This document shows, piece by piece, positions 1,481 through 18,653 of a stretch of 19,439 bases of DNA. Below the pieces are notes generated by a model that worked only from the letters and a program-made list of their open reading frames with translations, did no database searches and was not told the DNA's origin. Position 1 is the first letter of the stretch. Every line of letters starts with the position of its first letter. Location of the stretch: IMG/VR virus record IMGVR_UViG_2925903241_000001, positions 1 to 19,439 of that record. One strand, given 5' to 3'. The DNA is from a virus. Lineage: Duplodnaviria > Heunggongvirae > Uroviricota > Caudoviricetes. Made by a program: the position numbers and the translations under genes.

Positions 1481-1753
1481 ATGGACGCTGAAAATTATGT
1501 GATTCAGTATCCGCTTGATGCGGTTCATGTGGATAAATTTGCTGATTTATTAGGGAAGCCAAAGACAGCCGTCAGTGAAATGGTGAAGGCAAATAAATTA
1601 CCAATTATTGAATTGCGTGATCCTTGCAAACCGAAGGCTCGTGCCGGTGAAAAATGGGTTTTCATTCCTGAGTTTAATCGCGCTGTACGTGAGGCGTTTT
1701 ATAACCGACCGGTTGAACAGCGTGATGCATGGCTTTTGTGGATGGGGTTGTGA
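1481..1753 (+). CDS. cox: Cox-like excisionase / early regulator
   Basis: First rightward gene after the switch region. The ORF track starts at 1466, but the ATG at 1481 has a GAGGG Shine-Dalgarno about 9 nt upstream and gives 90 aa, close to P2 Cox. Product has the pattern ...GKLP.I...AG..WV..P.. ending ...WLLWMGL, similar to P2 Cox ...WLMWLGL from memory. Confidence 0.6.
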   Translation: MDAENYVIQYPLDAVHVDKFADLLGKPKTAVSEMVKANKLPIIELRDPCKPKARAGEKWVFIPEFNRAVREAFYNRPVEQRDAWLLWMGL

Positions 1754-1755
1754 TT

Positions 1756-1926
1756 ATGAATGAGCCGCGTTGTATTGCTCAGTTATTGCGTAACGAAAGC
1801 CCCAGGGCGATTGACTTCACCATCACCCACGGTAAGGGGCGTAAGGGAATCATTATCCGCACCAAAAAACAGAGTCCGTTAAAAAAGGCTCTGACCTTTC
1901 TGAAAAGCCGGAGGGTATGGAAATGA
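1756..1926 (+). CDS. Small hypothetical early protein (position of P2 orf78)
   Basis: ORF track gives 1729..1926; the ATG at 1756 (MNEPRCIAQLL...) avoids overlap with cox. Assignment is positional only. Confidence 0.35.
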   Translation: MNEPRCIAQLLRNESPRAIDFTITHGKGRKGIIIRTKKQSPLKKALTFLKSRRVWK

Positions 1927-2423
1927 CAGTGATGACGCTCAATCTCGTTGAAAAACAGCCAGCAGCTATGCGCCGGATAATTGGCAAGCATCTTGCCGTC
2001 CCTCGCTGGCAGGATACATGTGATTATTATAATCAGATGATGGAGCGCGAACGGCTAACGGTTTGCTTTCATGCACAGTTAAAACAGCGTCACGCAACGA
2101 TGCGTTTTGAAGAAATGAACGACGTCGAACGTGAACGACTGGTTTGTGCAATTGATGAATTGCGTGGCGCATTCTCAAAACGCCGTCAGGTCGGCGCAAG
2201 TGAGTATGCATATATTAGTTTTTTAACAGTCAGTCAGCGTCGTACTTTATTTATGCATGCGGGATTGACAGAAAAAGAATTCAATCAGCCGTACTGGCGA
2301 ATTAATGAAGAATCATGTTACTGGCGTGATGCTTTATTCCGTGCATTACGTGAATTATTCAGTCTGTTTGAGTATGCACCGACAATTCTGACGTCGGTAA
2401 AACCAGAGCAATATCTGCATTAA
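1917..2423 (+). CDS. P2 gpB-like early replication protein (tentative)
   Basis: 168-aa ORF at the position and size of P2 gene B (about 166 aa from memory) between cox and the small orf80-83-like genes. Based on synteny and size, not sequence recall. Confidence 0.5.
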   Translation: MEMTVMTLNLVEKQPAAMRRIIGKHLAVPRWQDTCDYYNQMMERERLTVCFHAQLKQRHATMRFEEMNDVERERLVCAIDELRGAFSKRRQVGASEYAYISFLTVSQRRTLFMHAGLTEKEFNQPYWRINEESCYWRDALFRALRELFSLFEYAPTILTSVKPEQYLH

Positions 2424-2486
2424 ATAATTAACCAGAGTTTTTAACGCACTTAATCGTGCGGGGCTTCTTTTTGCCTGGAGAAAGTC

Positions 2487-2711
2487 ATGCATACAGTTTC
2501 TGAAAATCAGTGCGGTAAATACGCATTACTGCTGCAACAGGCCAGAACCGAAGCACAGGCCGACGCTGCGACGCGCTTTTCTTCTCATCTTGACGCCATG
2601 ATTCGCCACATCACAAAGGCGGAGTTATCCCGCGTGGAGATAGTTGAGCTGCTCAGTCAGGAGTCGGAAAAATTTCACAATATCGGATTGTCTCGCGGGG
2701 AGGTGCTTTGA
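2487..2711 (+). CDS. Hypothetical early protein (P2 orf80 position)
   Basis: 74-aa ORF; its stop overlaps the next start (ATGA), indicating translational coupling within the early operon. Confidence 0.5.
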
Positions 2712-3013
2712 TGTCCTGTTCTCGTTCGGTTGTATTACTGAATAACGCCTTAAAAATCGCCGTTATGAAAAATGGTGATTTGTCTCTTATTCAACTTGGT
2801 ATTGATAAAGAGAAGCGCGAAATAACTGAATCTGTTATCGCGATTTATCAGAGTGAATTAAACCTCCTGTCTGATGTGGTCAATTTACTTGTTAAACGCG
2901 CTGTATTCCACAAGCAAATTTCCTCAGTGGATGAACTGACAAAATTAACGACAGAACTCGCCAGTTATTGCGCTGATGAATTTAAGAAGCTGAACGACAA
3001 AAGGAGCTGGTAA
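2708..3013 (+). CDS. Hypothetical early protein, AT-rich (P2 orf81 position)
   Basis: 101-aa ORF, visibly AT-richer than its neighbours. Tightly packed with the flanking genes (ATGA overlap upstream, the next start abuts its stop). Confidence 0.5.
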
Positions 3014-3237
3014 TGCCGGACAACGTGGATTTTATTCAGGAACAACAGGCTGAATTACTGGAGCGCCAGATTAACGCGGCAAGGGTAAAACATTGCGGTG
3101 TTTCTGCGCTGGTTTGCGAAGAGTGTGACGCGCCAATACCTGCTGCCCGTCGTGCGGCTTATCCGTCAGCCACGCGTTGTGTTTCCTGTCAGTCAGTCTT
3201 TGAAGCAAAAAACAAACATTACCGGAGAACGGCATGA
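3013..3237 (+). CDS. TraR/DksA-family C4 zinc-finger protein (P2 orf82-like)
   Basis: 74-aa product with CxxC...CxxC arrangement (C-E-E-C ... C-V-S-C) typical of phage TraR/DksA-like zinc fingers. Confidence 0.7.
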   Translation: MPDNVDFIQEQQAELLERQINAARVKHCGVSALVCEECDAPIPAARRAAYPSATRCVSCQSVFEAKNKHYRRTA

Positions 3238-3509
3238 GTATTCGTATTGAAATTGGCGAACGTTATGTCGTTACCAGTGACAGCTTTCAGTTTATTCTCC
3301 ACGAGAAAAAGAGAGCGGAAAGCGGTAAAAACGCCGGTCAGGAATGGCTGGCGGTGGTTGGTTATTACCCGAAATTAGGCCAGCTCGTTTCCGGCCTGAT
3401 GCATCACGATATTCTGACCGGAAGCGCAAAATCTTTTGCTGATTTAAACGCGCAGGTTGAGCAACTCAGCAAGCGTTGTTCAGAGGCTTTTGGCTCATAT
3501 GGCCGTTAA
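3234..3509 (+). CDS. Hypothetical early protein (P2 orf83 position)
   Basis: 91-aa ORF; its stop at 3507-3509 overlaps the A start codon at 3499. Confidence 0.55.
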   Translation: MSIRIEIGERYVVTSDSFQFILHEKKRAESGKNAGQEWLAVVGYYPKLGQLVSGLMHHDILTGSAKSFADLNAQVEQLSKRCSEAFGSYGR

Positions 3510-4869
3510 AGCCTCCGGGCGTTTTGTCCCTCCGTCAGCATTTACCGCAGGCACCGGTAAGGCGTTTACCGGTGCTTATGCATGGAACGCGCCACGCGAG
3601 GCTGTCGGGCGCGAAAGACCTCTTACACGTGACGAGATGCGTCAGGTGCAAGGTGTTTTATCCACGATTAACCGCCTGCCTTACTTTTTGCGCTCGCTGT
3701 TTACTTCACGCTATGACTACATCCGGCGCAATAAAAGCCCGGTGCACGGGTTTTATTTCCTCACATCTACTTTTCAGCGTCGTTTATGGCCGCGCATTGA
3801 GCGTGTGAATCAGCGCCATGAAATGAACACCGACGCGTCGTTGCTGTTTCTGGCAGAGCGTGACCACTATGCGCGCCTGCCGGGAATGAATGACAAGGAG
3901 CTGAAAAAGTTTGCCGCCCGTATCTCATCGCAGCTTTTCATGATGTATGAGGAACTCTGCGATGCATGGGTTGATGCGCATGGTGAAAAAGAATCGCTGT
4001 TTACGGATGAGGCGCAGGCTCACCTGTATGGTCATGTTGCTGGCGCTGCACGTGCTTTCAATATTTCCCCGCTCTACTGGAAAAAATACCGTAAAGGACA
4101 GATGACCACGAGGCAGGCATATTCTGCCATTGCCCGCCTGTTTAACGATGAGTGGTGGACTCATCAGCTTAAAGGCCAGCGTATGCGCTGGCATGAGGCG
4201 TTACTGATAGCTGTCGGGGAGGTCAATAAAGACCGTTCTCCTTATGCCAGTAAACACGCCATTCGTGATGTGCGTGCGCGCCGCCAGGCAAATCTGGAAT
4301 TTCTTAAATCGTGTGACCTTGAAAACAGGGAAACCGGCGAGCGCATCGACCTTATCAGTAAGGTGATGGGCAGTATTTCTAATCCTGAAATTCGCCGGAT
4401 GGAGCTGATGAACACCATTGCCGGTATTGAGCGTTACGCCGCCGCAGAGGGTGATGTGGGGATGTTTATCACGCTGACCGCGCCGTCAAAGTATCACCCG
4501 ACACGTCAGGTCGGAAAAGGCGAAAGTAAAACCGTTCAGCTTAATCACGGCTGGAACGATGAGGCATTTAATCCAAAGGATGCGCAGCGTTATCTCTGCC
4601 GTATCTGGAGCCTGATGCGCACGGCATTCAAGGATAATGATTTACAGGTCTACGGTTTGCGAGTCGTCGAGCCACACCACGACGGAACGCCGCACTGGCA
4701 TATGATGCTTTTTTGTCATCCACGCCAGCGTAACCAGATTATCGAAATCATGCGTCGCTATGCGCTCAAAGAGGATGGCGACGAAAGAGGTGCGTATTTT
4801 CATGAAAGGAGATCACTCAATAACTTCCATCGAGATCGGGTAATAACATTTGAACAGATCGCTGAATAA
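3499..4869 (+). pseudogene. A: Replication initiation endonuclease gpA (rolling-circle HUH nickase), 3' truncated by IS21-family insertion
   Basis: Likely start at MAVKASGRFVPP (3499), which is the P2 gpA N-terminus as I recall it. Phage-derived coding runs to about 4790 (roughly 431 codons, versus about 761 aa for P2 gpA). The final 25 codons of the ORF (...AYFHERRSLNNFHRDRVITFEQIAE) read into the IS terminal repeat. HUH motif PHWHMM is retained near aa 405-410. Confidence 0.85.
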
Positions 4870-4983
4870 CATCGATGGAGATCACTTTTGACTCATTTTG
4901 TTATTCAGTGATCTCCATCAATGTTATTGGAACTTCACAGGTGTGTTGATCTGTATCTTTTGCCATTCCGGTAAAGGATACCT

Positions 4984-6525
4984 ATGCCAACAGTTCCAAT
5001 TTCTATGAGAAAACTTAAAGAAATTCTTAGGCTTAAATACGGTGTTGGACTCAGCCATCGACAAATTGGTCGTAGTCTTGCAATCTCCCCTTCCGTTGTA
5101 TCCAGATATGCTAATCGGGCGGCTCAACTTGGCATAAAGCAGTGGCCCTTACCTACAGGATGGGATGATACAAAACTAAAACATGCGTTCCTTCAGACCC
5201 AGGTTAAGATGAAGAAGCACTCTCTGCCTGACTGGGCTACAGTACACCGGGAACTGCGTAATAAATGCGTGACGCTGCAGCTACTCTGGGAAGAATACTG
5301 TGAGCGTAATCCAGGCGGTTTTTACAGCTATAACCATTACTGCCGGATGTACCGTGAATGGCTCAAAACCACTTCACCATCAATGCGTCAGGTACATAAA
5401 GCTGGCGAAAAACTTTTCGTTGATTACTGTGGACCTACCGTTGGCGTTACCGACCCTGAGACCGGAGAAATAAGAACTGCTCAGGTCATCGTAGCTGTTC
5501 TCGGGGCATCAAGTTACACATGGGCAGAGGCCACCTGGTCTCAGCAGCTTGAAGACTGGGTGATGAGTCATGTTCGCTGCTTCCAGTGGTTGGGTGGCGT
5601 TCCTGAACTTGTTGTTCCGGACAATCTGAAAAGCGCCACATCCAGGGCATGTAAGTATGATCCTGACGTTAACCCTACCTACCAGCAGATGCTTGAGCAT
5701 TATAATGTCGCAGTTTTGCCTGCGCGGCCACGTAAACCGAAAGATAAAGCCAAAGCTGAAGTTGGCGTTCAGGTTGTTGAACGCTGGATCATGGCCCGAA
5801 TCAGGCATGAGATCTTCTACAGCCTTGCATCGCTTAATCAGCGCATTCGGGAGTTGCTGGAAAGACTGAATAACAAAATAATGCAGAAGTTGGGTTATTC
5901 ACGTGCAGAACTCTTCATCCAGCTTGATAAACCCGCACTGAAGCCTCTTCCTGAAGCCAGTTACAGTTACACCCTGGTGAAGAAAGTCAGAGTTCATGCC
6001 GATTACCACGTGGAAATCGACAAACATTACTACTCGGTTCCATGTTCGCTGTTAGGCCAGCAACTGGAAGCATGGATCTCCGGAGAACTGGTAAGACTCT
6101 TCAATCAGGGGCAGGAGGTTGCTGTGCACCCGCGCAAGCGTACTTATGGCTACAGTACCCGCAACGAGCACATGCCTGAAGCTCATCGACAGCATGCCAC
6201 CTGGACGCCAGAGCGTCTTCTGGAATGGGCGGGGCACATAGGCAGTGAAACTCATAGTTATGTGCTTCATATACTGAACTCTCGTCCACATCCGGAACAA
6301 AGCTATCGCTTCTGCCTTGGACTCCTGAACCTTCATAAAAAATACAGTAAAGCCAGACTTAATGCAGCATGTGCAAGAGCTCTGGAAACAAAGGTATGGC
6401 GTCTGTCAGGTATTAAATCGATCCTGGAAAAAGGTCTGGATAAACAACCTGTTCAGGATCCAAAACCAGATCTGTTATCCACGATGGAACACGAAAACGT
6501 ACGCGGCAGTGAGTATTACCACTGA
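4984..6525 (+). CDS. istA: IS21-family transposase IstA
   Basis: 513-aa ORF with N-terminal HTH-like region (LSHRQIGRSLAISPSVVSRYANRA) and a central integrase-type core, immediately followed by istB. Shine-Dalgarno AGGATA upstream. Confidence 0.9.
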   Translation: MPTVPISMRKLKEILRLKYGVGLSHRQIGRSLAISPSVVSRYANRAAQLGIKQWPLPTGWDDTKLKHAFLQTQVKMKKHSLPDWATVHRELRNKCVTLQLLWEEYCERNPGGFYSYNHYCRMYREWLKTTSPSMRQVHKAGEKLFVDYCGPTVGVTDPETGEIRTAQVIVAVLGASSYTWAEATWSQQLEDWVMSHVRCFQWLGGVPELVVPDNLKSATSRACKYDPDVNPTYQQMLEHYNVAVLPARPRKPKDKAKAEVGVQVVERWIMARIRHEIFYSLASLNQRIRELLERLNNKIMQKLGYSRAELFIQLDKPALKPLPEASYSYTLVKKVRVHADYHVEIDKHYYSVPCSLLGQQLEAWISGELVRLFNQGQEVAVHPRKRTYGYSTRNEHMPEAHRQHATWTPERLLEWAGHIGSETHSYVLHILNSRPHPEQSYRFCLGLLNLHKKYSKARLNAACARALETKVWRLSGIKSILEKGLDKQPVQDPKPDLLSTMEHENVRGSEYYH

Positions 6526-6536
6526 TACGGGATCCA

Positions 6537-7286
6537 ATGATGAATCATCTTTACGAACAACTGACCGCACTTAAACTCACCGGCTTCCGTGATGCGCTTA
6601 AAAAGCAACTTGCTCAACCGGGCACATACCAGGAGCTGGGCTTCGAAGAACGCCTGTCATTACTGACAGCAGAAGAACTAACCTGCCGTGAAAACAGGAA
6701 GGCAGAGCGTCTGATCAAACATGCACGGTTCAGACTTAATGCTGAGTTATCAAAGCTGGATTATCGTAACAATAGAGGGCTGGACAGGGCCCTCATCCGT
6801 TCACTCAGTCAGGGAAACTGGTTAACCCTGAAACAAAATATTTTACTGACCGGGGCCACCGGCAGCGGTAAAACGTTCCTGGCATGTGCACTTGGTCATA
6901 ATGCCTGCCGACAGGGATACAAGGTCTACTATTATCGCCTTAAAGCGCTGATGGAACAGTGCTATCAGGGGCATGCTGATGGAAGATACAGCAAACTTTT
7001 GACCAGGCTGAATAATAGCGATCTGCTGCTTCTGGATGACTGGGGGCTGGAACCTCTCTCATCAGAACAGCGTAGCGACCTGCTGGAAATAGTGGATCTG
7101 ATGTACCAACGAGGCTCAATCATCGTAGTGAGCCAGTTGCCGGTGGAAAACTGGTACAAAATGATCGGAGACTCCACACATGCGGATGCCATCCTAGATC
7201 GACTGGTTCATGGCAGTATCAAGATCGAACTTAAAGGAGAATCAATGCGGAAAATACAATCTCCGTTGACCGAAGGAGATCAGTGA
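6537..7286 (+). CDS. istB: IS21-family ATP-binding helper protein IstB
   Basis: 249-aa ORF with Walker A GATGSGKT and Walker B-like LLLLDDWG, 11 bp downstream of istA. Confidence 0.9.
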   Translation: MMNHLYEQLTALKLTGFRDALKKQLAQPGTYQELGFEERLSLLTAEELTCRENRKAERLIKHARFRLNAELSKLDYRNNRGLDRALIRSLSQGNWLTLKQNILLTGATGSGKTFLACALGHNACRQGYKVYYYRLKALMEQCYQGHADGRYSKLLTRLNNSDLLLLDDWGLEPLSSEQRSDLLEIVDLMYQRGSIIVVSQLPVENWYKMIGDSTHADAILDRLVHGSIKIELKGESMRKIQSPLTEGDQ

Positions 7287-7411
7287 AGGTAATTTAAAAA
7301 CGGTTCTGTGAAAGTGACACGAACCGATCTCCATCGATGTTACTCACCGATCTCCTTCACGGTAATACGCAAAGGCCACGGAACAGGCACACCAACGGGT
7401 AATACAGAGCC

Positions 7412-7437
7412 TTCTCCCAAACCAACGTTTATGAAAA
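7412..7437. other. Orphan gix/hix/pix-like invertase crossover site
   Basis: TTCTCCCAAACC-AA-CGTTTATGAAAA: a 26-bp imperfect palindrome (half-sites match 8/12 in inverse orientation) with central AA dinucleotide and AAACC..GGTTT-type core, resembling hixL and gix sites as I recall them. Lies 56 bp upstream of the invertase start, as in Gin/Hin systems. No partner site found in the window. Confidence 0.6.
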
Positions 7438-7517
7438 TGCAGAGATAACGGGCAAGTGGCATCATCTCCGGTTTTTATTCAGGGGGATGCTCATGCTTAT
7501 TGGCTATGTACGCGTGT

Positions 7518-7525
7518 CAACAAAT
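7518..7525. repeat. IS66 target-site duplication, left copy (CAACAAAT)
   Basis: 8-bp direct repeat immediately flanking the IS66-family left end; identical copy at 9981-9988. Confidence 0.9.
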
Positions 7526-7606
7526 GTAAGCGTCGTCTCAGCACCGTCTGGCAGATCCTGAAATTCCTGAGAGAATAGTGGACACCAAATATGGTGGACG
7601 CAATCC

Positions 7607-8011
7607 ATGAAATCATTAACCGCAGTGCGTAAAAAAAGCCCTAATTATCCCGTTGAGTTCAAAATCAAAATGGTTGAACTCTCGCATCGACCAGAGATCT
7701 CCGTAGCGCAACTCGCTCGTGAGCATGGGATCAACGATAATTTGCTGTTCAAGTGGCGCCAGTACTGGCGCGAAGGAAAACTACGTCCTCCTTCAACAAC
7801 AGAAAACAACGTGCCTGAGCTGCTCCCGATAACACTTGATGCCGAAGATGTTGTCCCTACAACCTCCCCCCGGTCACAACCTGTAGCTGCTGCGACACCT
7901 GAATCACTCAATATCAGCTGTGAAGTGACGTTCCGGCACGGATCACTCCGTCTGAATGGTGCCATCAGCGAAAATATCCTGAACCTGCTGATACGGGAGC
8001 TCAAACGTTGA
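7607..8011 (+). CDS. tnpA: IS66-family accessory protein TnpA (orfA)
   Basis: 134-aa ORF, first gene of the IS66 module; stop overlaps the tnpB start. Confidence 0.8.
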   Translation: MKSLTAVRKKSPNYPVEFKIKMVELSHRPEISVAQLAREHGINDNLLFKWRQYWREGKLRPPSTTENNVPELLPITLDAEDVVPTTSPRSQPVAAATPESLNISCEVTFRHGSLRLNGAISENILNLLIRELKR

Positions 8012-8355
8012 TCCCATTACCATCAGGGACAAAGATCTGGCTGGTCGCTGGCATCACCGATATGAGAAACGGCTTCAACGGCCTGGCGGCAAAGGTGCAG
8101 ACGACGCTGAAAGACGATCCGATGTCAGGTCACGTTTTTATCTTCCGTGGGCGTAATGGCAGTCAGGTAAAGCTCCTCTGGTCTACCGGCGATGGACTGT
8201 GTCTGCTGACCAAACGGCTGGAGCGCGGCCGCTTCGCCTGGCCGTCAGCCCGGGATGGCAAAGTGTTCCTCACACCGGCACAGCTGGCGATGCTGCTGGA
8301 AGGTATCGACTGGCGGCAGCCTAAAAGACTGCTTACGTCCCTGACTATGTTGTAA
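8008..8355 (+). CDS. tnpB: IS66-family accessory protein TnpB (orfB)
   Basis: 115-aa ORF MIPLPSGTKIWLVAGITDMR..., the conserved IS66 orfB-type protein by recall. Confidence 0.85.
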   Translation: MIPLPSGTKIWLVAGITDMRNGFNGLAAKVQTTLKDDPMSGHVFIFRGRNGSQVKLLWSTGDGLCLLTKRLERGRFAWPSARDGKVFLTPAQLAMLLEGIDWRQPKRLLTSLTML

Positions 8356-8403
8356 GCCTCTTTATCCTGGTCGACGCTGAATGAGCCTGGTAATATACCC
8401 GGT

Positions 8404-9939
8404 ATGAGCAGCTCACTTCCTGACGATATCAATGCACTGAAACGTCTCCTTGCCGAACAGGAGGCGCTGAACCGTGCCCTGCAGGAAAAGCTGAACGAGC
8501 GTGAACGCGAAATAGACCATCTGCAGGCACAGCTGGATAAGCTGCGCCGGATGAACTTCGGCAGCCGCTCGGAAAAAGTCTCCCGTCGTATCGCACAGAT
8601 GGAAGCTGACCTGAAGGCACTTCAGAAAGAAAGTGATACCCTTACCGGTCGGGTTGACGACCCGGCCGTGCAGCGCCCGCTGCGTCAAACCCGCACCCGC
8701 AAACCGTTCCCCGAATCACTCCCCCGCGATGAAAAACGGCTGCTGCCGGCAGCGTCATGCTGCCCGGAATGTGGAGGCTCGCTGAGCTATCTGGGTGAGG
8801 ATGCCGCCGAACAGCTGGAGCTGATGCGCAGCGCCTTCCGGGTTATCCGGACTGTACGTGAAAAGCATGCCTGTACTCAGTGCGATGCCATCGTGCAGGC
8901 CCCCGCGCCTTCACGGCCCATCGAGCGGGGTATCGCAGGACCGGGGCTGCTGGCCCGCGTGCTGATCTCAAAGTATGCAGAGCACACCCCGCTGTACCGC
9001 CAGTCTGAAATGTACGGCCGCCAGGGCGTGGAGCTGAGTCGTTCACTGCTGTCGGGCTGGGTGGATGCATGCTGCCGGCTACTGTCACCGCTGGAAGAAG
9101 CGCTTCAGGACTATGTGCTGACTGACGGTAAGCTCCATGCTGATGACACGCCTGTCCCGGTGCTGTTGCCAGGCAATAAGAAAACGAAGACCGGGCGGTT
9201 ATGGACCTACGTTCGTGACGACCGTAACGCCGGGTCAACGCTGGCGCCGGCGGTGTGGTTCGCTTACAGCCCGGACAGAAAAGGCATCCATCCGCAGACC
9301 CATCTTGCGGGGTTCAGTGGTGTACTGCAGGCGGATGCATACGCCGGGTTCAACGAGCTGTACCGGGATGGCCGGATAACGGAAGCCGCCTGTTGGGCTC
9401 ACGCCCGCCGTAAAATCCACGATGTGCACGTTCGCACCCCGTCAGCCCTGACGGAGGAAGCGCTGAAACGGATCGGCGAACTGTACGCCATCGAGGCAGA
9501 GATAAGGGGAATGACGGCGGAGCAGCGCCTTGCCGAACGTCAGTTGAAAACGAAACCGCTGCTGAAATCCCTGGAAAGCTGGCTGCGTGAAAAGATGAAA
9601 ACCCTGTCGCGACACTCAGAACTGGCGAAAGCGTTCGCATACGCCCTGAACCAGTGGCCGGCGCTGACGTACTATGCAGATGATGGCTGGGCTGAGGCGG
9701 ACAATAACATCGCTGAAAATGCGTTGCGGATGGTCAGTCTGGGCCGCAAAAACTACCTGTTCTTCGGTTCGGATCATGGAGGAGAGCGGGGAGCGCTGCT
9801 GTACAGCCTGATCGGGACGTGCAAACTGAACGGAGTGGAGCCAGAAAGCTACCTCCGCTATGTCCTTGACGTCATAGCCGACTGGCCGATAAACCGGGTC
9901 GGCGAACTGCTCCCCCTGGCGCGTAGCACTGCCGACTGA
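8404..9939 (+). CDS. tnpC: IS66-family transposase TnpC
   Basis: 511-aa ORF with N-terminal leucine-zipper/coiled-coil, a CxxC...CxxC zinc-finger region (CPECGG ... CTQCD) and a C-terminal DDE-type region, typical of IS66 transposases. Confidence 0.9.
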
Positions 9940-9980
9940 ATAACACATCCCCGTCAATACGGTTCTTGCTGCACGCTTAC

Positions 9981-9988
9981 CAACAAAT
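9981..9988. repeat. IS66 target-site duplication, right copy (CAACAAAT)
   Basis: Identical to 7518-7525; immediately follows the IS66 right terminus. Confidence 0.9.
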
Positions 9989-10608
9989 GACCAGAACACG
10001 GAATTGCAGCGTAACGCGCTGGAGTGCGCAGGATGTGAGCTGATTTTTGAGGATAAAATCAGCGGCACGAAGTCCGACAGGCCGGGGCTGAAAAAACTGC
10101 TCAGAACATTATCGGAAGGTGACACTCTGGTAGTCTGGAAGCTGGACCGGCTGGGGCGTAGTATGCGGCATCTGGTCATTCTGGTTGAGGAGCTGCGCGA
10201 ACGCGGCATTAATTTTCGCAGCCTGACGGATGCCATTGATACCAGCACGCCGATGGGGCGTTTTTTCTTTCATGTGATGGGTGCCCTGGCTGAAATGGAG
10301 CGAGAACTCATTGTCGAGCGGACACGCGCCGGACTGGAGGCGGCCAGAGCCAAAGGTCGTATTGGTGGCAGACGTCCGAAACTCACCGCGAGTGAGTGGG
10401 AGCAGGCCGGGCGGTTGCTGGCTGCAGGGGAATCACGTCAACGCGTGGCACTGATTTTTGATATTGGCCTGTCCACGCTCTATAAAAAATTCCCCGCCTC
10501 AGTGACAAAAAATAAATTGTGTCATCCCTTAGCCAACCGGGACAAATAGCCTGACATCTCCGGCACAACTAAAAATATCACTCACCCATTAACCACGGAG
10601 TTAAACGG

Positions 10609-11799
10609 ATGAGTGACTATCATCACGGCGTGCAGGTGCTGGAGATTAACGACGGCACCCGCGTCATTTCCACCGTATCCACTGCCATTGTCGGCATGGT
10701 CTGCACGGCCAGCGATGCGGATGCGGAAACCTTCCCCCTCAATAAACCGGTGCTGATTACCAATGTGCAGAGCGCAATTGCAAAGGCTGGTAAAAAAGGC
10801 ACGCTGGCGGCGTCGTTACAGGCCATCGCCGACCAGTCAAAACCGGTCACCGTTGTCGTGCGTGTGGAAGACGGCACCGGTGACGACGAGGAAACGAAAC
10901 TCGCGCAGACCGTTTCCAATATCATCGGCACCACCGACGAAAACGGTCAGTACACCGGACTGAAAGCCCTGCTGGCGGCGGAGTCGGTAACCGGTGTTAA
11001 GCCGCGCATTCTCGGTGTGCCGGGACTGGACACCAAAGAGGTTGCCGTCGCACTGGCATCAGTCTGTCAGAAGCTGCGCGCTTTCGGGTATATCAGCGCA
11101 TGGGGCTGTAAAACCATTTCCGAGGTGAAAGCCTACCGCCAGAATTTCAGCCAGCGTGAGCTGATGGTCATCTGGCCGGATTTCCTCGCATGGGATACGG
11201 TCACCAGTACCACCGCCACCGCGTATGCCACCGCCCGTGCGCTGGGTCTGCGCGCTAAAATCGACCAGGAGCAGGGCTGGCATAAAACACTGTCCAACGT
11301 TGGGGTGAACGGTGTTACCGGCATCAGCGCATCTGTATTCTGGGATTTGCAGGAGTCCGGCACCGATGCTGACCTGCTGAATGAGTCAGGCGTCACAACG
11401 CTGATTCGCCGTGACGGTTTCCGCTTCTGGGGTAACCGTACCTGCTCTGATGACCCGCTGTTCCTCTTTGAAAACTACACCCGCACCGCGCAGGTGCTGG
11501 CCGACACGATGGCTGAGGCGCACATGTGGGCGGTGGACAAGCCCATCACCGCAACGCTGATTCGCGACATCGTTGATGGCATCAATGCCAAATTCCGAGA
11601 GCTGAAAACAAACGGCTATATCGTGGATGGCACATGCTGGTTCAGCGAAGAATCCAACGATGCGGAAACCCTCAAGGCCGGAAAACTGTATATCGACTAC
11701 GACTATACACCGGTGCCTCCTCTCGAAAACCTGACCCTGCGCCAGCGTATTACCGATAAATACCTGGCAAATCTGGTCACCTCGGTTAACAGCAATTAA
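10609..11799 (+). CDS. FI: Contractile tail sheath protein gpFI
   Basis: 396-aa ORF beginning MSDYHHGVQVLEINDGTRVISTVSTAIVGMV..., matching P2 FI in length and in sequence as far as I can recall. GGAG Shine-Dalgarno upstream. Confidence 0.93.
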   Translation: MSDYHHGVQVLEINDGTRVISTVSTAIVGMVCTASDADAETFPLNKPVLITNVQSAIAKAGKKGTLAASLQAIADQSKPVTVVVRVEDGTGDDEETKLAQTVSNIIGTTDENGQYTGLKALLAAESVTGVKPRILGVPGLDTKEVAVALASVCQKLRAFGYISAWGCKTISEVKAYRQNFSQRELMVIWPDFLAWDTVTSTTATAYATARALGLRAKIDQEQGWHKTLSNVGVNGVTGISASVFWDLQESGTDADLLNESGVTTLIRRDGFRFWGNRTCSDDPLFLFENYTRTAQVLADTMAEAHMWAVDKPITATLIRDIVDGINAKFRELKTNGYIVDGTCWFSEESNDAETLKAGKLYIDYDYTPVPPLENLTLRQRITDKYLANLVTSVNSN

Positions 11800-17283: not shown

Positions 17284-17805
17284 ATGTCAAAGCCAAAATA
17301 CCCTTTTGAAAAGCGCCTTGAAGTCGTGAATCACTACTTCACAACTGATGATGGTTACAGGATCATCTCGGCACGTTTTGGTGTCCCCCGAACCCAGGTC
17401 AGGACATGGGTTGCCCTCTATGAAAAACATGGAGAAAAAGGTTTAATTCCCAAACCTAAAGGCGTTAGTGCTGATCCAGAGTTGCGTATTAAGGTCGTGA
17501 AAGCTGTGATCGAGCAGCACATGTCCCTTAATCAGGCTGCTGCTCACTTTATGCTTGCTGGTAGTGGTTCTGTAGCCAGGTGGCTGAAGGTCTATGAAGA
17601 GCGCGGAGAAGCTGGTTTACGCGCGCTCAAGATTGGCACCAAAAGAAACATTGCAATATCAGTTGATCCAGAAAAAGCGGCATCAGCATTGGAGCTGTCA
17701 AAAGACCGACGCATTGAGGATCTTGAAAGGCAAGTTCGATTTCTTGAAACGCGGCTTATGTATCTAAAAAAGCTGAAAGCCTTAGCTCATCCCACGAAAA
17801 AGTGA
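17284..17805 (+). CDS. insJ: IS150 transposase OrfA (InsJ)
   Basis: 173-aa ORF with N-terminal HTH; contains the A AAA AAG frameshift heptamer at 17766-17772 near its 3' end. Confidence 0.92.
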   Translation: MSKPKYPFEKRLEVVNHYFTTDDGYRIISARFGVPRTQVRTWVALYEKHGEKGLIPKPKGVSADPELRIKVVKAVIEQHMSLNQAAAHFMLAGSGSVARWLKVYEERGEAGLRALKIGTKRNIAISVDPEKAASALELSKDRRIEDLERQVRFLETRLMYLKKLKALAHPTKK

Positions 17806-18653
17806 AAGTACTCAACGAGCTAAGGCAGTTTTATCCTCTTGATGAGCTTCTCAGGGCTGCGGAGATACCGCGCAGTACGTTTTATTATCATCTAAAGGCT
17901 CTCAGCAAGCCTGACAAGTATGCGGACGTTAAAAAGCGTATTAGTGAGATTTATCACGAGAATAGAGGCCGATACGGATACCGTAGGGTAACGCTGTCTC
18001 TTCATCGAGAAGGGAAACAGATTAACCATAAAGCTGTTCAGCGCCTGATGGGAACCCTCTCACTTAAAGCAGCGATTAAGGTCAAGCGATACCGCTCTTA
18101 CAGAGGAGAGGTAGGGCAAACCGCCCCTAATGTTCTCCAAAGAGATTTCAAGGCTACGCGGCCAAACGAGAAGTGGGTTACCGATGTTACTGAATTTGCA
18201 GTCAATGGGCGCAAGCTGTATTTGTCTCCAGTAATAGATCTCTTCAACAACGAAGTTATTTCTTACAGCCTTTCGGAAAGACCAGTGATGAACATGGTTG
18301 AGAATATGCTCGATCAGGCATTCAAAAAGCTTAATCCTCACGAGCATCCTGTTCTGCACTCTGACCAGGGATGGCAGTATCGTATGAGAAGATATCAAAA
18401 TATCCTTAAAGAACATGGTATTAAACAAAGCATGTCCAGAAAAGGCAATTGTCTGGATAATGCTGTGGTGGAGTGTTTCTTTGGAACCTTAAAGTCGGAG
18501 TGTTTTTATCTTGATGAGTTCAGTAATATAAGCGAACTGAAGGATGCTGTTACGGAATATATTGAATACTACAACAGCAGAAGAATTAGCCTGAAATTAA
18601 AAGGTCTGACTCCAATTGAATATCGGAATCAGACCTATATGCCTCGTGTTTAA
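17802..18653 (+). CDS. insK: IS150 transposase OrfB (InsK), DDE catalytic domain; expressed mainly as an InsJK fusion by -1 frameshift
   Basis: 283-aa ORF in the -1 frame relative to insJ, with an IS3-family integrase-core DDE region (...WVTDVTEF...HSDQGWQY...). Confidence 0.92.

Follow-up and report, generated by a model that had tools for sequence, protein, structure and literature searches.

The invertase gene of a P2-like prophage in Escherichia coli ST167 is split after codon 11 by ISEc22, an element of the IS66 family flanked by a perfect 8-bp target duplication. The insertion is real, ordinary and already sequenced: a textbook case of a gene knocked out by an IS while its prophage decays. 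It lies in a window of 19,439 bp (the whole stretch of DNA that was analyzed; Table 1) that is 100% identical, with 0 mismatches, to E. coli strain SCEC020007, which belongs to ST167 (PMC6392093). The locus very probably reflects a single ISEc22 insertion, clonal inheritance in ST167 and a later ISEc12-associated deletion, with an inert switch remnant as the outcome. ISEc22 would have transposed once into the invertase gene, duplicating CAACAAAT and inactivating the gene by separating its first 11 codons, Ser9 included, from the remainder; the disrupted allele would have been passed on clonally within the ST167 lineage; and later, in the sub-lineage of the window, an ISEc12-associated deletion would have taken out all the DNA from the middle of replication gene A onward, sparing only the last 40 bp of the invertible segment. 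Such stepwise IS-driven prophage decay would have left one orphan crossover site in an inert remnant of a tail-fiber switch. This order of events is read from genome counts, not from a phylogeny.

The initial annotation had recognized an insertion of the IS66 family and its 8-bp duplication, and this reading is borne out by CAACAAAT on both sides and by Pfam and NCBIfam assignments. Both copies of CAACAAAT are perfect and abut the IS termini exactly (two preset positions would match by chance with a probability of 4^-8, or roughly 1.5e-5), and the duplicated target corresponds to nucleotides 26-33 of the invertase gene. The empty site of strain 600055, which has one CAACAAAT, equals the product of in-silico excision at every base. 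Imperfect terminal inverted repeats starting with GTAAGCG are typical of the IS66 family; here the ends, previously described as the characteristic GTAAGCG / CGCTTAC, read GTAAGCGT and ACGCTTAC, match perfectly over the outermost 8 bp and imperfectly, as an inverted repeat, further in, and are identical across five ISEc22 copies. The name ISEc22 comes from PGAP labels of copies that are 100% identical over 2455 bp, and the TnpC sequence falls in the cluster "ISEc22 family transposase". Other 100%-identical copies are found at unrelated loci, three out of four with the same termini and with 8-bp duplications of their own (GCATATTC, CATCATAC and TCAAAACT); the four target duplications, each from a different locus, have no consensus in common.

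ISEc22 encodes tnpA, tnpB and tnpC as three consecutive ORFs on one strand, all scoring above the curated cut-offs of the NCBIfam IS66 models for TnpA (IS66_ISRel24_TnpA, 82.8 bits, cut-off 74), TnpB and transpos_IS66. The start of tnpB and the stop of tnpA share 4 nt (TTGA), and TnpC also contains the Pfam domains zf-IS66, LZ_Tnp_IS66 and DDE_Tnp_IS66_C. Five consecutive C at 9912-9916, versus four in the 512-aa form of TnpC, alter the last 8 residues, and PGAP labels the gene "frameshifted"; the NCBIfam model stops short of the frameshift, and the two frames were discriminated by exact sequence look-up. The distinct duplications around identical copies show the extra-C variant to be still mobile, or mobilized in trans.

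Table 1. Features of the disrupted invertase locus and adjoining prophage remnant (window coordinates).
Feature	Position	Strand	Details
P2-type replication gene A	3499..4790	+	3' end truncated by ISEc12; Pfam Phage_GPA; PGAP "missing C-terminus"
ISEc12 (IS21 family)	4791..7371	+	2581 bp; istA 4984-6525, istB 6537-7286
Remnant of invertible tail-fiber segment	7372..7411	-	last 40 bp; start of alternative tail-fiber 3' exon
Sole surviving crossover site (gix/hix/pix-like)	7412..7437	+	TTCTCCCAAACCAACGTTTATGAAAA; 26 bp; 55 bp upstream of invertase ATG
Invertase 5' fragment	7493..7525	+	codons 1-11 (MLIGYVRVSTN); ATG 7493; holds catalytic Ser9
Left target-site duplication copy	7518..7525	.	CAACAAAT; 8 bp
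ISEc22 (IS66 family)	7526..9980	+	2455 bp; termini GTAAGCGT / ACGCTTAC
tnpA, IS66 accessory protein	7607..8011	+	134 aa; Pfam HTH_Tnp_1
tnpB, IS66 Orf2	8008..8355	+	115 aa; Pfam TnpB_IS66, E = 1.6e-38; NCBIfam IS66_TnpB
tnpC, DDE transposase	8404..9939	+	511 aa; Pfam DDE_Tnp_IS66, E = 5e-107
Right target-site duplication copy	9981..9988	.	CAACAAAT; 8 bp
Invertase 3' fragment	9989..10549	+	codons 12-197 plus stop; without Ser9

The gene had been said to be rebuildable, and deletion of 7526-9988 in silico, the check proposed at that time, indeed yields an in-frame ORF of 594 nt (197 aa plus stop) with invertase motifs. [quoted passage not shown] Codons 1-11 align with Gin residues 1-11, and within VRVSTNDQ the catalytic serine aligns with Gin Ser9; it had been placed at residue 10, which is the Hin numbering. 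All sequence statements of the initial annotation are confirmed save this one residue number.

Ser9 is the nucleophile through which the enzyme becomes covalently attached to DNA as phosphoserine. In the present window it is cut off from the remainder of the invertase gene: the reading frame from the ATG runs 11 codons further inside the IS and then stops, and the earliest in-frame start of the 3' fragment is a TTG at 10004, the beginning of a 181-aa ORF (10004-10549) that, as had been pointed out, lacks the catalytic serine. RefSeq places the start of the 3' fragment within the IS (ATC, 9947) and annotates as intact a 200-aa "recombinase", a hybrid ORF that is encoded by 369 public contigs. 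The S9A substitution in Gin abolishes DNA cleavage, with DNA binding and oligomerization retained (PMC3575834). Since Ser9 sits in the first 11 codons, split from the rest, neither piece of the gene would be expected from the Gin S9A phenotype to give an active recombinase.

Among 5,426 complete E. coli genomes, 81 contain the same ISEc22 insertion, which thus marks a clone and is not a fresh event. Position, orientation and duplication are identical in every carrier. The left junction is common to 78 genomes, 60 with an intact segment and 18 with the ISEc12 junction. Eleven carrier strains, SCEC020007 among them, were compared with the literature, and all are listed as ST167 (PMC6392093). The earlier proposal of a relatively recent insertion stands insofar as the flanks are undiverged from the intact allele, but recency is relative only, the insertion being fixed in the ST167 clone. 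Most carriers have the 1.95-kb tail-fiber segment in a single orientation. Intact alleles at 100% identity amount to one genome per orientation; a baseline of orientations drawn from intact alleles (873 versus 75 genomes) was rejected because the tail-fiber segments are mosaic and the queries sample different prophages.

The host prophage, integrated between cpxP and fieF, is a remnant. In related genomes both crossover sites are found, 1.95 kb apart and inverted, and both orientations of the segment are seen; the inverted partner of the surviving site occurs only in those genomes (L002 7090-7115), and a search of the window for two inverted 26-bp sites flanking a segment found one site only. 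The ancestral prophage therefore had a two-site invertible segment, and the present locus no longer does. ISEc12 now connects the truncated gene A with what is left of the segment, its last 40 bp, which PGAP includes in a partial "phage tail protein" (7373-7465). The flanks of this ISEc12 lack a target duplication, whereas in strain TO73, where ISEc12 is simply inserted, a 5-bp duplication (AGCGG) surrounds it. The remnant state of the prophage, with ISEc12-associated loss of the invertible segment as a whole and of the other crossover site, had been overlooked in the initial annotation. Strain 167 harbors a further derivative, in which the IS and the 5' end of the invertase gene are lost and the end of ISEc12 is fused to codon 19; its intact-looking recombinase beside ISEc12 was considered as a precise excision of ISEc22 and rejected, as the structure is an additional deletion.

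With one crossover site left and the invertase gene split, the switch would be dead twice over. The Fis-bound recombinational enhancer of such systems usually lies toward the 5' end within the gene of the invertase. A candidate 15-mer resembling the Fis consensus (GAGGATAAAATCAGC) is located at +94 of the rebuilt gene and is conserved in Mu gin (GAAGATAAATTAAGC), where its position is identical; all candidate Fis-like enhancer sites lie 3' of the insertion point. The 2.5-kb separation of enhancer and crossover site to which attention had been drawn would carry no functional weight, since the enhancers of Hin and Gin remain effective when the crossover site is many kb away (PMC3798978), and with only one crossover site left it is moot.

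Three genomes with the disrupted allele (EJN001, EBJ001 and 11899A_LBHALD) carry the segment in the inverted state, with the crossover sites as the exact endpoints, and inversion is the sole difference between the loci of EJN001 and 4/2-1 (0 mismatches in 10.5 kb). These three genomes count against the preferred account: the segment has not been absolutely frozen since the ISEc22 insertion. PinQ of the Qin prophage inverts the P segment of e14, a trans-acting inversion between cryptic prophages (PMC12529663), and flipping in trans would likewise be the simplest account of the inverted segment in the three genomes. Unlike the PinQ/e14 case, no second intact Pin-type invertase gene was found in the chromosomes concerned: megablast detected one locus per chromosome, blastn with a word size of 11 detected two, the second being a 168-nt pinH remnant between ypjC and ypjA, and on the SCEC020007 chromosome the integration sites of e14 (icd), Rac (ttcA) and Qin (ydfJ) are all three empty. 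The serine recombinase encoded by the only plasmid of EJN001 was rejected as a Pin-type source, being just 24% identical and of the resolvase type. That the ST167 segment still inverts precisely although its one recognizable Pin-type invertase gene is split and the genome has no other detectable gene of that type, either through an unrecognized resident recombinase acting on the pix-like sites or by invertase-independent exchange across 14 bp of inverted identity, is rather unlikely.

It is very unlikely that the insertion created a new function and not a null allele, with the 3' fragment expressed from the TTG at 10004 or as the 200-aa ORF to give a serine-less DNA-binding protein that is dominant-negative or represses at the crossover site. 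In favor of a new function, the 3' fragment is an intact ORF with the dimerization helix and HTH_7 domain kept, Gin S9A still binds DNA and oligomerizes (PMC3575834), and 369 contigs have the hybrid ORF in conserved form, for which clonal inheritance accounts equally well. However, a simple scan of 7300-10650 found no sigma-70-like promoter, outward-directed or otherwise, the candidate starts of the 3' fragment are TTG and ATC with no ribosome-binding site identified, it has lost not only Ser9 but also the initial beta-strand of the catalytic domain, and its only possible target in the window is one orphan site. In strain 167, moreover, the invertase region has been trimmed further without sign of constraint.

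The occurrence of the disrupted allele with both segment orientations would also fit a target hot spot that ISEc22 entered several times independently, in place of one inherited event, but this is extremely improbable given that the four ISEc22 target duplications lack a consensus, that all carriers share position, orientation and duplication, that EJN001 and 4/2-1 differ by the inversion alone, and that the 11 carriers checked in the literature are listed as ST167 (PMC6392093). An assembly artifact or chance juxtaposition, for which no evidence was found, is already refuted by the identical junction in 81 independently assembled complete genomes, by the exact agreement of empty site and excision product, and by the canonical duplication rule that other ISEc22 copies follow. 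A single insertion, inherited clonally and followed by ISEc12-associated loss, is the preferred account.

The biological significance of the insertion is small: good descriptions exist of the IS as well as of the invertase family, and RefSeq already contains the sequence. The ISEc22::invertase junction is a clean clonal marker for the NDM-5-associated ST167 lineage, as is the nested ISEc12 deletion for one ST167 sub-lineage. Two RefSeq "recombinase family protein" entries without the serine, WP_062914736.1 (200 aa, 369 contigs) and WP_303275799.1, should be pseudogenes and could mislead surveys of invertases or defense islands. The rare inverted carriers offer a natural test of prophage segment flipping in trans, a question that has become more interesting with the link between PinQ-driven inversion and phage defense (PMC12529663).

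ISEc22 agrees with the IS66 family to which it belongs, for which a three-ORF layout and an 8-bp duplication are established traits (PMC6778807), in its tnpA-tnpB-tnpC order, the IS66 DDE domain of TnpC, its 8-bp duplication and its GTAAGCG termini, and has as relatives IS66 of Agrobacterium and IS679/ISEc8 of E. coli; the present copy is the common extra-C variant with a TnpC of 511 aa, versus the 512-aa form. The rebuilt 197-aa protein belongs with Gin (Mu), Pin (e14), Cin (P1) and Hin (Salmonella) in the Fis-dependent subfamily of small serine recombinases, sharing with the Gin subfamily Ser9, a C-terminal HTH_7 domain and a 26-bp crossover site 55 bp upstream of the gene, although it extends 15 aa at the C-terminus past the alignment with Gin. 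The layout is that of Mu, in which a constant tail-fiber part is followed by invertible variable parts and assembly genes and then by the invertase, but the host here is a P2-like prophage, unlike the Mu, P1 and e14 systems. Unlike the gin, pin, cin and hin loci, the invertase gene is split by an IS, and its substrate in the window is down to one site.

The invertase gene of this prophage remnant is interrupted by a simple insertion. Its first eleven codons, ATG CTT ATT GGC TAT GTA CGC GTG TCA ACA AAT (MLIGYVRVSTN), end with the 8-mer CAACAAAT, a second copy of which precedes GAC CAG AAC ACG GAA TTG on the far side of a 2455-bp block. The two copies form a perfect direct repeat flush with both ends of the block, the termini of which are inverted repeats (perfect over the outer 8 bp, with an imperfect match further in). 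Removal of 7526-9988 in silico restores a 594-nt in-frame open reading frame (197 codons plus stop), and the empty site of strain 600055, with a single CAACAAAT, matches this product base for base; thus, the event was a simple insertion at nucleotides 26-33 of the gene. The initial annotation had all the coordinates of the insertion right, its perfect 8-bp duplication and GTAAGCG/CGCTTAC-type IS ends were seen on both sides of the block, and the deletion it proposed gives a product that is in frame, 197 residues long and alignable with Gin; the serine of VRVSTN, which it numbered 10, is actually residue 9. The finding is real and was correctly interpreted, yet it is ordinary, being a known IS in a known type of gene, and the sequence is already public and clonally inherited.

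Features of the prophage remnant in window order
Feature	Position	Remarks
Integrase, C, cox, early genes		
Replication gene A		truncated
Left flank of ISEc12	4786-4790	AGAGG
ISEc12 (IS21 family)	4791-7371	ends TGCGTATTTTCA (left), CGGTAATACGCA (right)
Right flank of ISEc12	7372-7376	AAGGC; phage homology picks up again at 7372
Phage remnant		120 bp
Crossover site	7412-7437	TTCTCCCAAACCAACGTTTATGAAAA; sole site in the window
Invertase, 5' piece	7493-7525	
Left repeat copy	7518-7525	CAACAAAT
ISEc22 (IS66 family)	7526-9980	opens with GTAAGCGTCG
tnpA/tnpB overlap	8008-8011	TTGA
Five-C run in tnpC	9912-9916	
ISEc22 right end	9974-9980	CGCTTAC
Right repeat copy	9981-9988	CAACAAAT
WP_062914736.1	9947-10549	start ATC 9947
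First in-frame start of invertase 3' piece	10004	TTG
Tail sheath, tube, E/E', tape measure, U, D, ogr		
IS150 (IS3 family)	17284-18653	programmed frameshift; just downstream of ogr, right end of remnant

Copies with 100% identity to the block, which PGAP labels ISEc22, are present in many E. coli chromosomes and plasmids, and 1072 records contain one at 99% identity or more. The element encodes three proteins on one strand: 134 aa (Pfam HTH_Tnp_1), 115 aa (TnpB_IS66, E=1.6e-38) and 511 aa (DDE_Tnp_IS66, E=5e-107, with IS66 zinc-finger, leucine-zipper and C-terminal modules), all of which score above the curated cut-offs set by NCBIfam for its IS66 models (TnpA, TnpB and transposase). A three-ORF layout and an 8-bp duplication are traits of the IS66 family (PMC6778807). 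The start codon of tnpB is TTG and overlaps the tnpA stop by 4 nt, consistent with translational coupling of these accessory genes. The termini recur unchanged in four other identical copies, three of which are flanked by their own 8-bp duplications (GCATATTC, CATCATAC and TCAAAACT) with no common target motif. PGAP flags tnpC as frameshifted because of a run of five C; with four C, TnpC has 512 residues, and with five, 511, the last 8 residues being different. The five-C tnpC is a common variant, for exact matches to the 511-aa form are found on 876 public contigs and those to the 512-aa form on at least 1000, and identical five-C copies with their own 8-bp duplications elsewhere indicate that the variant is still mobile or mobilised.

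The rebuilt protein contains a Resolvase catalytic domain (E=3e-52) and an HTH_7 domain, aligns with Gin of phage Mu (PDB 4m6f) over residues 1-182 (E=1.7e-93), shares 99% identity with the invertase of the free P2-like Salmonella phage MET_P1_103_31, and occurs exactly on 623 public contigs. As it stands, the 5' piece has coding capacity for no more than 11 residues of the invertase, followed by 11 from the IS, and the 3' piece lacks Ser9 and the first beta-strand; the open reading frame from the downstream TTG is present and without the catalytic serine, as had been noted initially. No sigma-70-like promoter was found by a scan of 7300-10650. The Gin crystal construct 3uj3 has alanine at residue 9, a substitution (S9A) made to block DNA cleavage, with oligomerisation unaffected (PMC3575834); by this phenotype we infer that the split invertase is probably a null allele. 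In RefSeq the 3' piece nevertheless appears as a "recombinase family protein" of 200 aa (WP_062914736.1; 14658-15260 in the SCEC020007 locus), which starts within the right end of ISEc22, has no catalytic serine and is found, as an exact match, on 369 public contigs. In a derivative, strain 167, PGAP predicts a 197-aa "recombinase" (WP_303275799.1), also without the catalytic serine, of which the first 19 residues are encoded by the ISEc12 end. Both should be pseudogenes.

The window matches E. coli SCEC020007 (NZ_CP025627.1) with 0 mismatches across 19,439 bp, and in that genome it is a P2-like prophage flanked by cpxP and fieF; this strain is ST167, as are 11 carriers that include it (PMC6392093). 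ISEc12 abuts the truncated P2 gene A on one side and, on the other, what is left of the invertible tail-fibre segment, its last 40 bp. The flanks of this IS are unlike, with no target duplication, whereas in strain TO73 a 5-bp duplication (AGCGG) brackets a simple ISEc12 insertion. ISEc12 in the window thus marks an IS-associated deletion in which the head, lysis, baseplate and tail-fibre genes were lost. The TO73 copy (NZ_LS992171.1, locus positions 1666-4246) is an independent insertion: in a related P2-like prophage whose invertase is intact, it interrupts a tail-fibre assembly gene lying within the invertible segment. IS insertion has thus struck the switch region at least twice. The left ISEc22 junction is present in 78 of 5,426 complete E. 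coli genomes; 60 of these retain the full segment, oriented as in the window, and 18 have the ISEc12 junction. In another three genomes, this IS junction accompanies an inverted segment. Because the ISEc12 genotype is nested inside the ISEc22 genotype, ISEc22 inserted first. In strain 167 (Houston; NZ_CM132942.1, locus positions 4161-4782), a later deletion has joined the ISEc12 right end to invertase codon 19 (window 7371 to 10010), with loss of ISEc22, the 5' fragment and the crossover site. The history of the locus, as read from these junctions, appears to be one of stepwise IS-driven erosion.

In EJN001 (NZ_CP086338.1), EBJ001 and 11899A_LBHALD the disrupted allele is accompanied by an inverted 1.95-kb segment, the breakpoints falling exactly at the crossover sites. 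When the segment is flipped in silico at the crossover cores, the 10.5-kb locus of EJN001 and that of strain 4/2-1 agree with 0 mismatches, so at least one precise inversion followed the insertion. No resident invertase able to flip the segment was found: megablast shows one invertase locus per chromosome, word-11 blastn shows two, the second being a 168-nt pinH remnant, and e14, Rac and Qin are absent from the SCEC020007 chromosome. A serine recombinase on the only plasmid of EJN001 is unrelated (24% identical) and was rejected as a candidate. Inversion in trans between prophages is documented, as PinQ works on the e14 segment (PMC12529663), and a helper invertase, transient or since lost, is therefore the simplest explanation. 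Rare exchange without invertase would give the same product, within the only 14 bp of perfect inverted identity common to both sites. Independent re-insertion of ISEc22 at the same nucleotide is unlikely, because its targets share no consensus. This rare inversion without a recognisable invertase is the sole loose end worth following; in the window itself, the locus is further gutted by a second IS. In 11899A_LBHALD (NZ_CP130447.1), the ISEc22 left end runs for about 130 nt from locus position 5433 and is followed by tRNA/gad-region DNA, the invertase 3' part lying about 1 Mb away at record position 1,620,168; this break is either a large ISEc22-mediated rearrangement or a misassembly.

With its invertase split and the second crossover site deleted, the switch in the window has neither enzyme nor substrate. 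A Fis-consensus-like 15-mer at +94, a candidate Fis site, is conserved in both the rebuilt gene and Mu gin, and all candidate sites fall downstream of the insertion point, where the initial annotation had supposed that any enhancer would sit. The 2.5-kb separation that it described would by itself have no expected effect: the usual distance of the hin enhancer from a hix site is about 100 bp, but it still activates inversion from many kb away (PMC3798978). In a switch already disabled, the point is moot. In the intact relative, strain 4/2-1, the inverted partner of the crossover site lies 1.95 kb away within a tail-fibre gene, and the invertible region has the same layout as the G segment of Mu.
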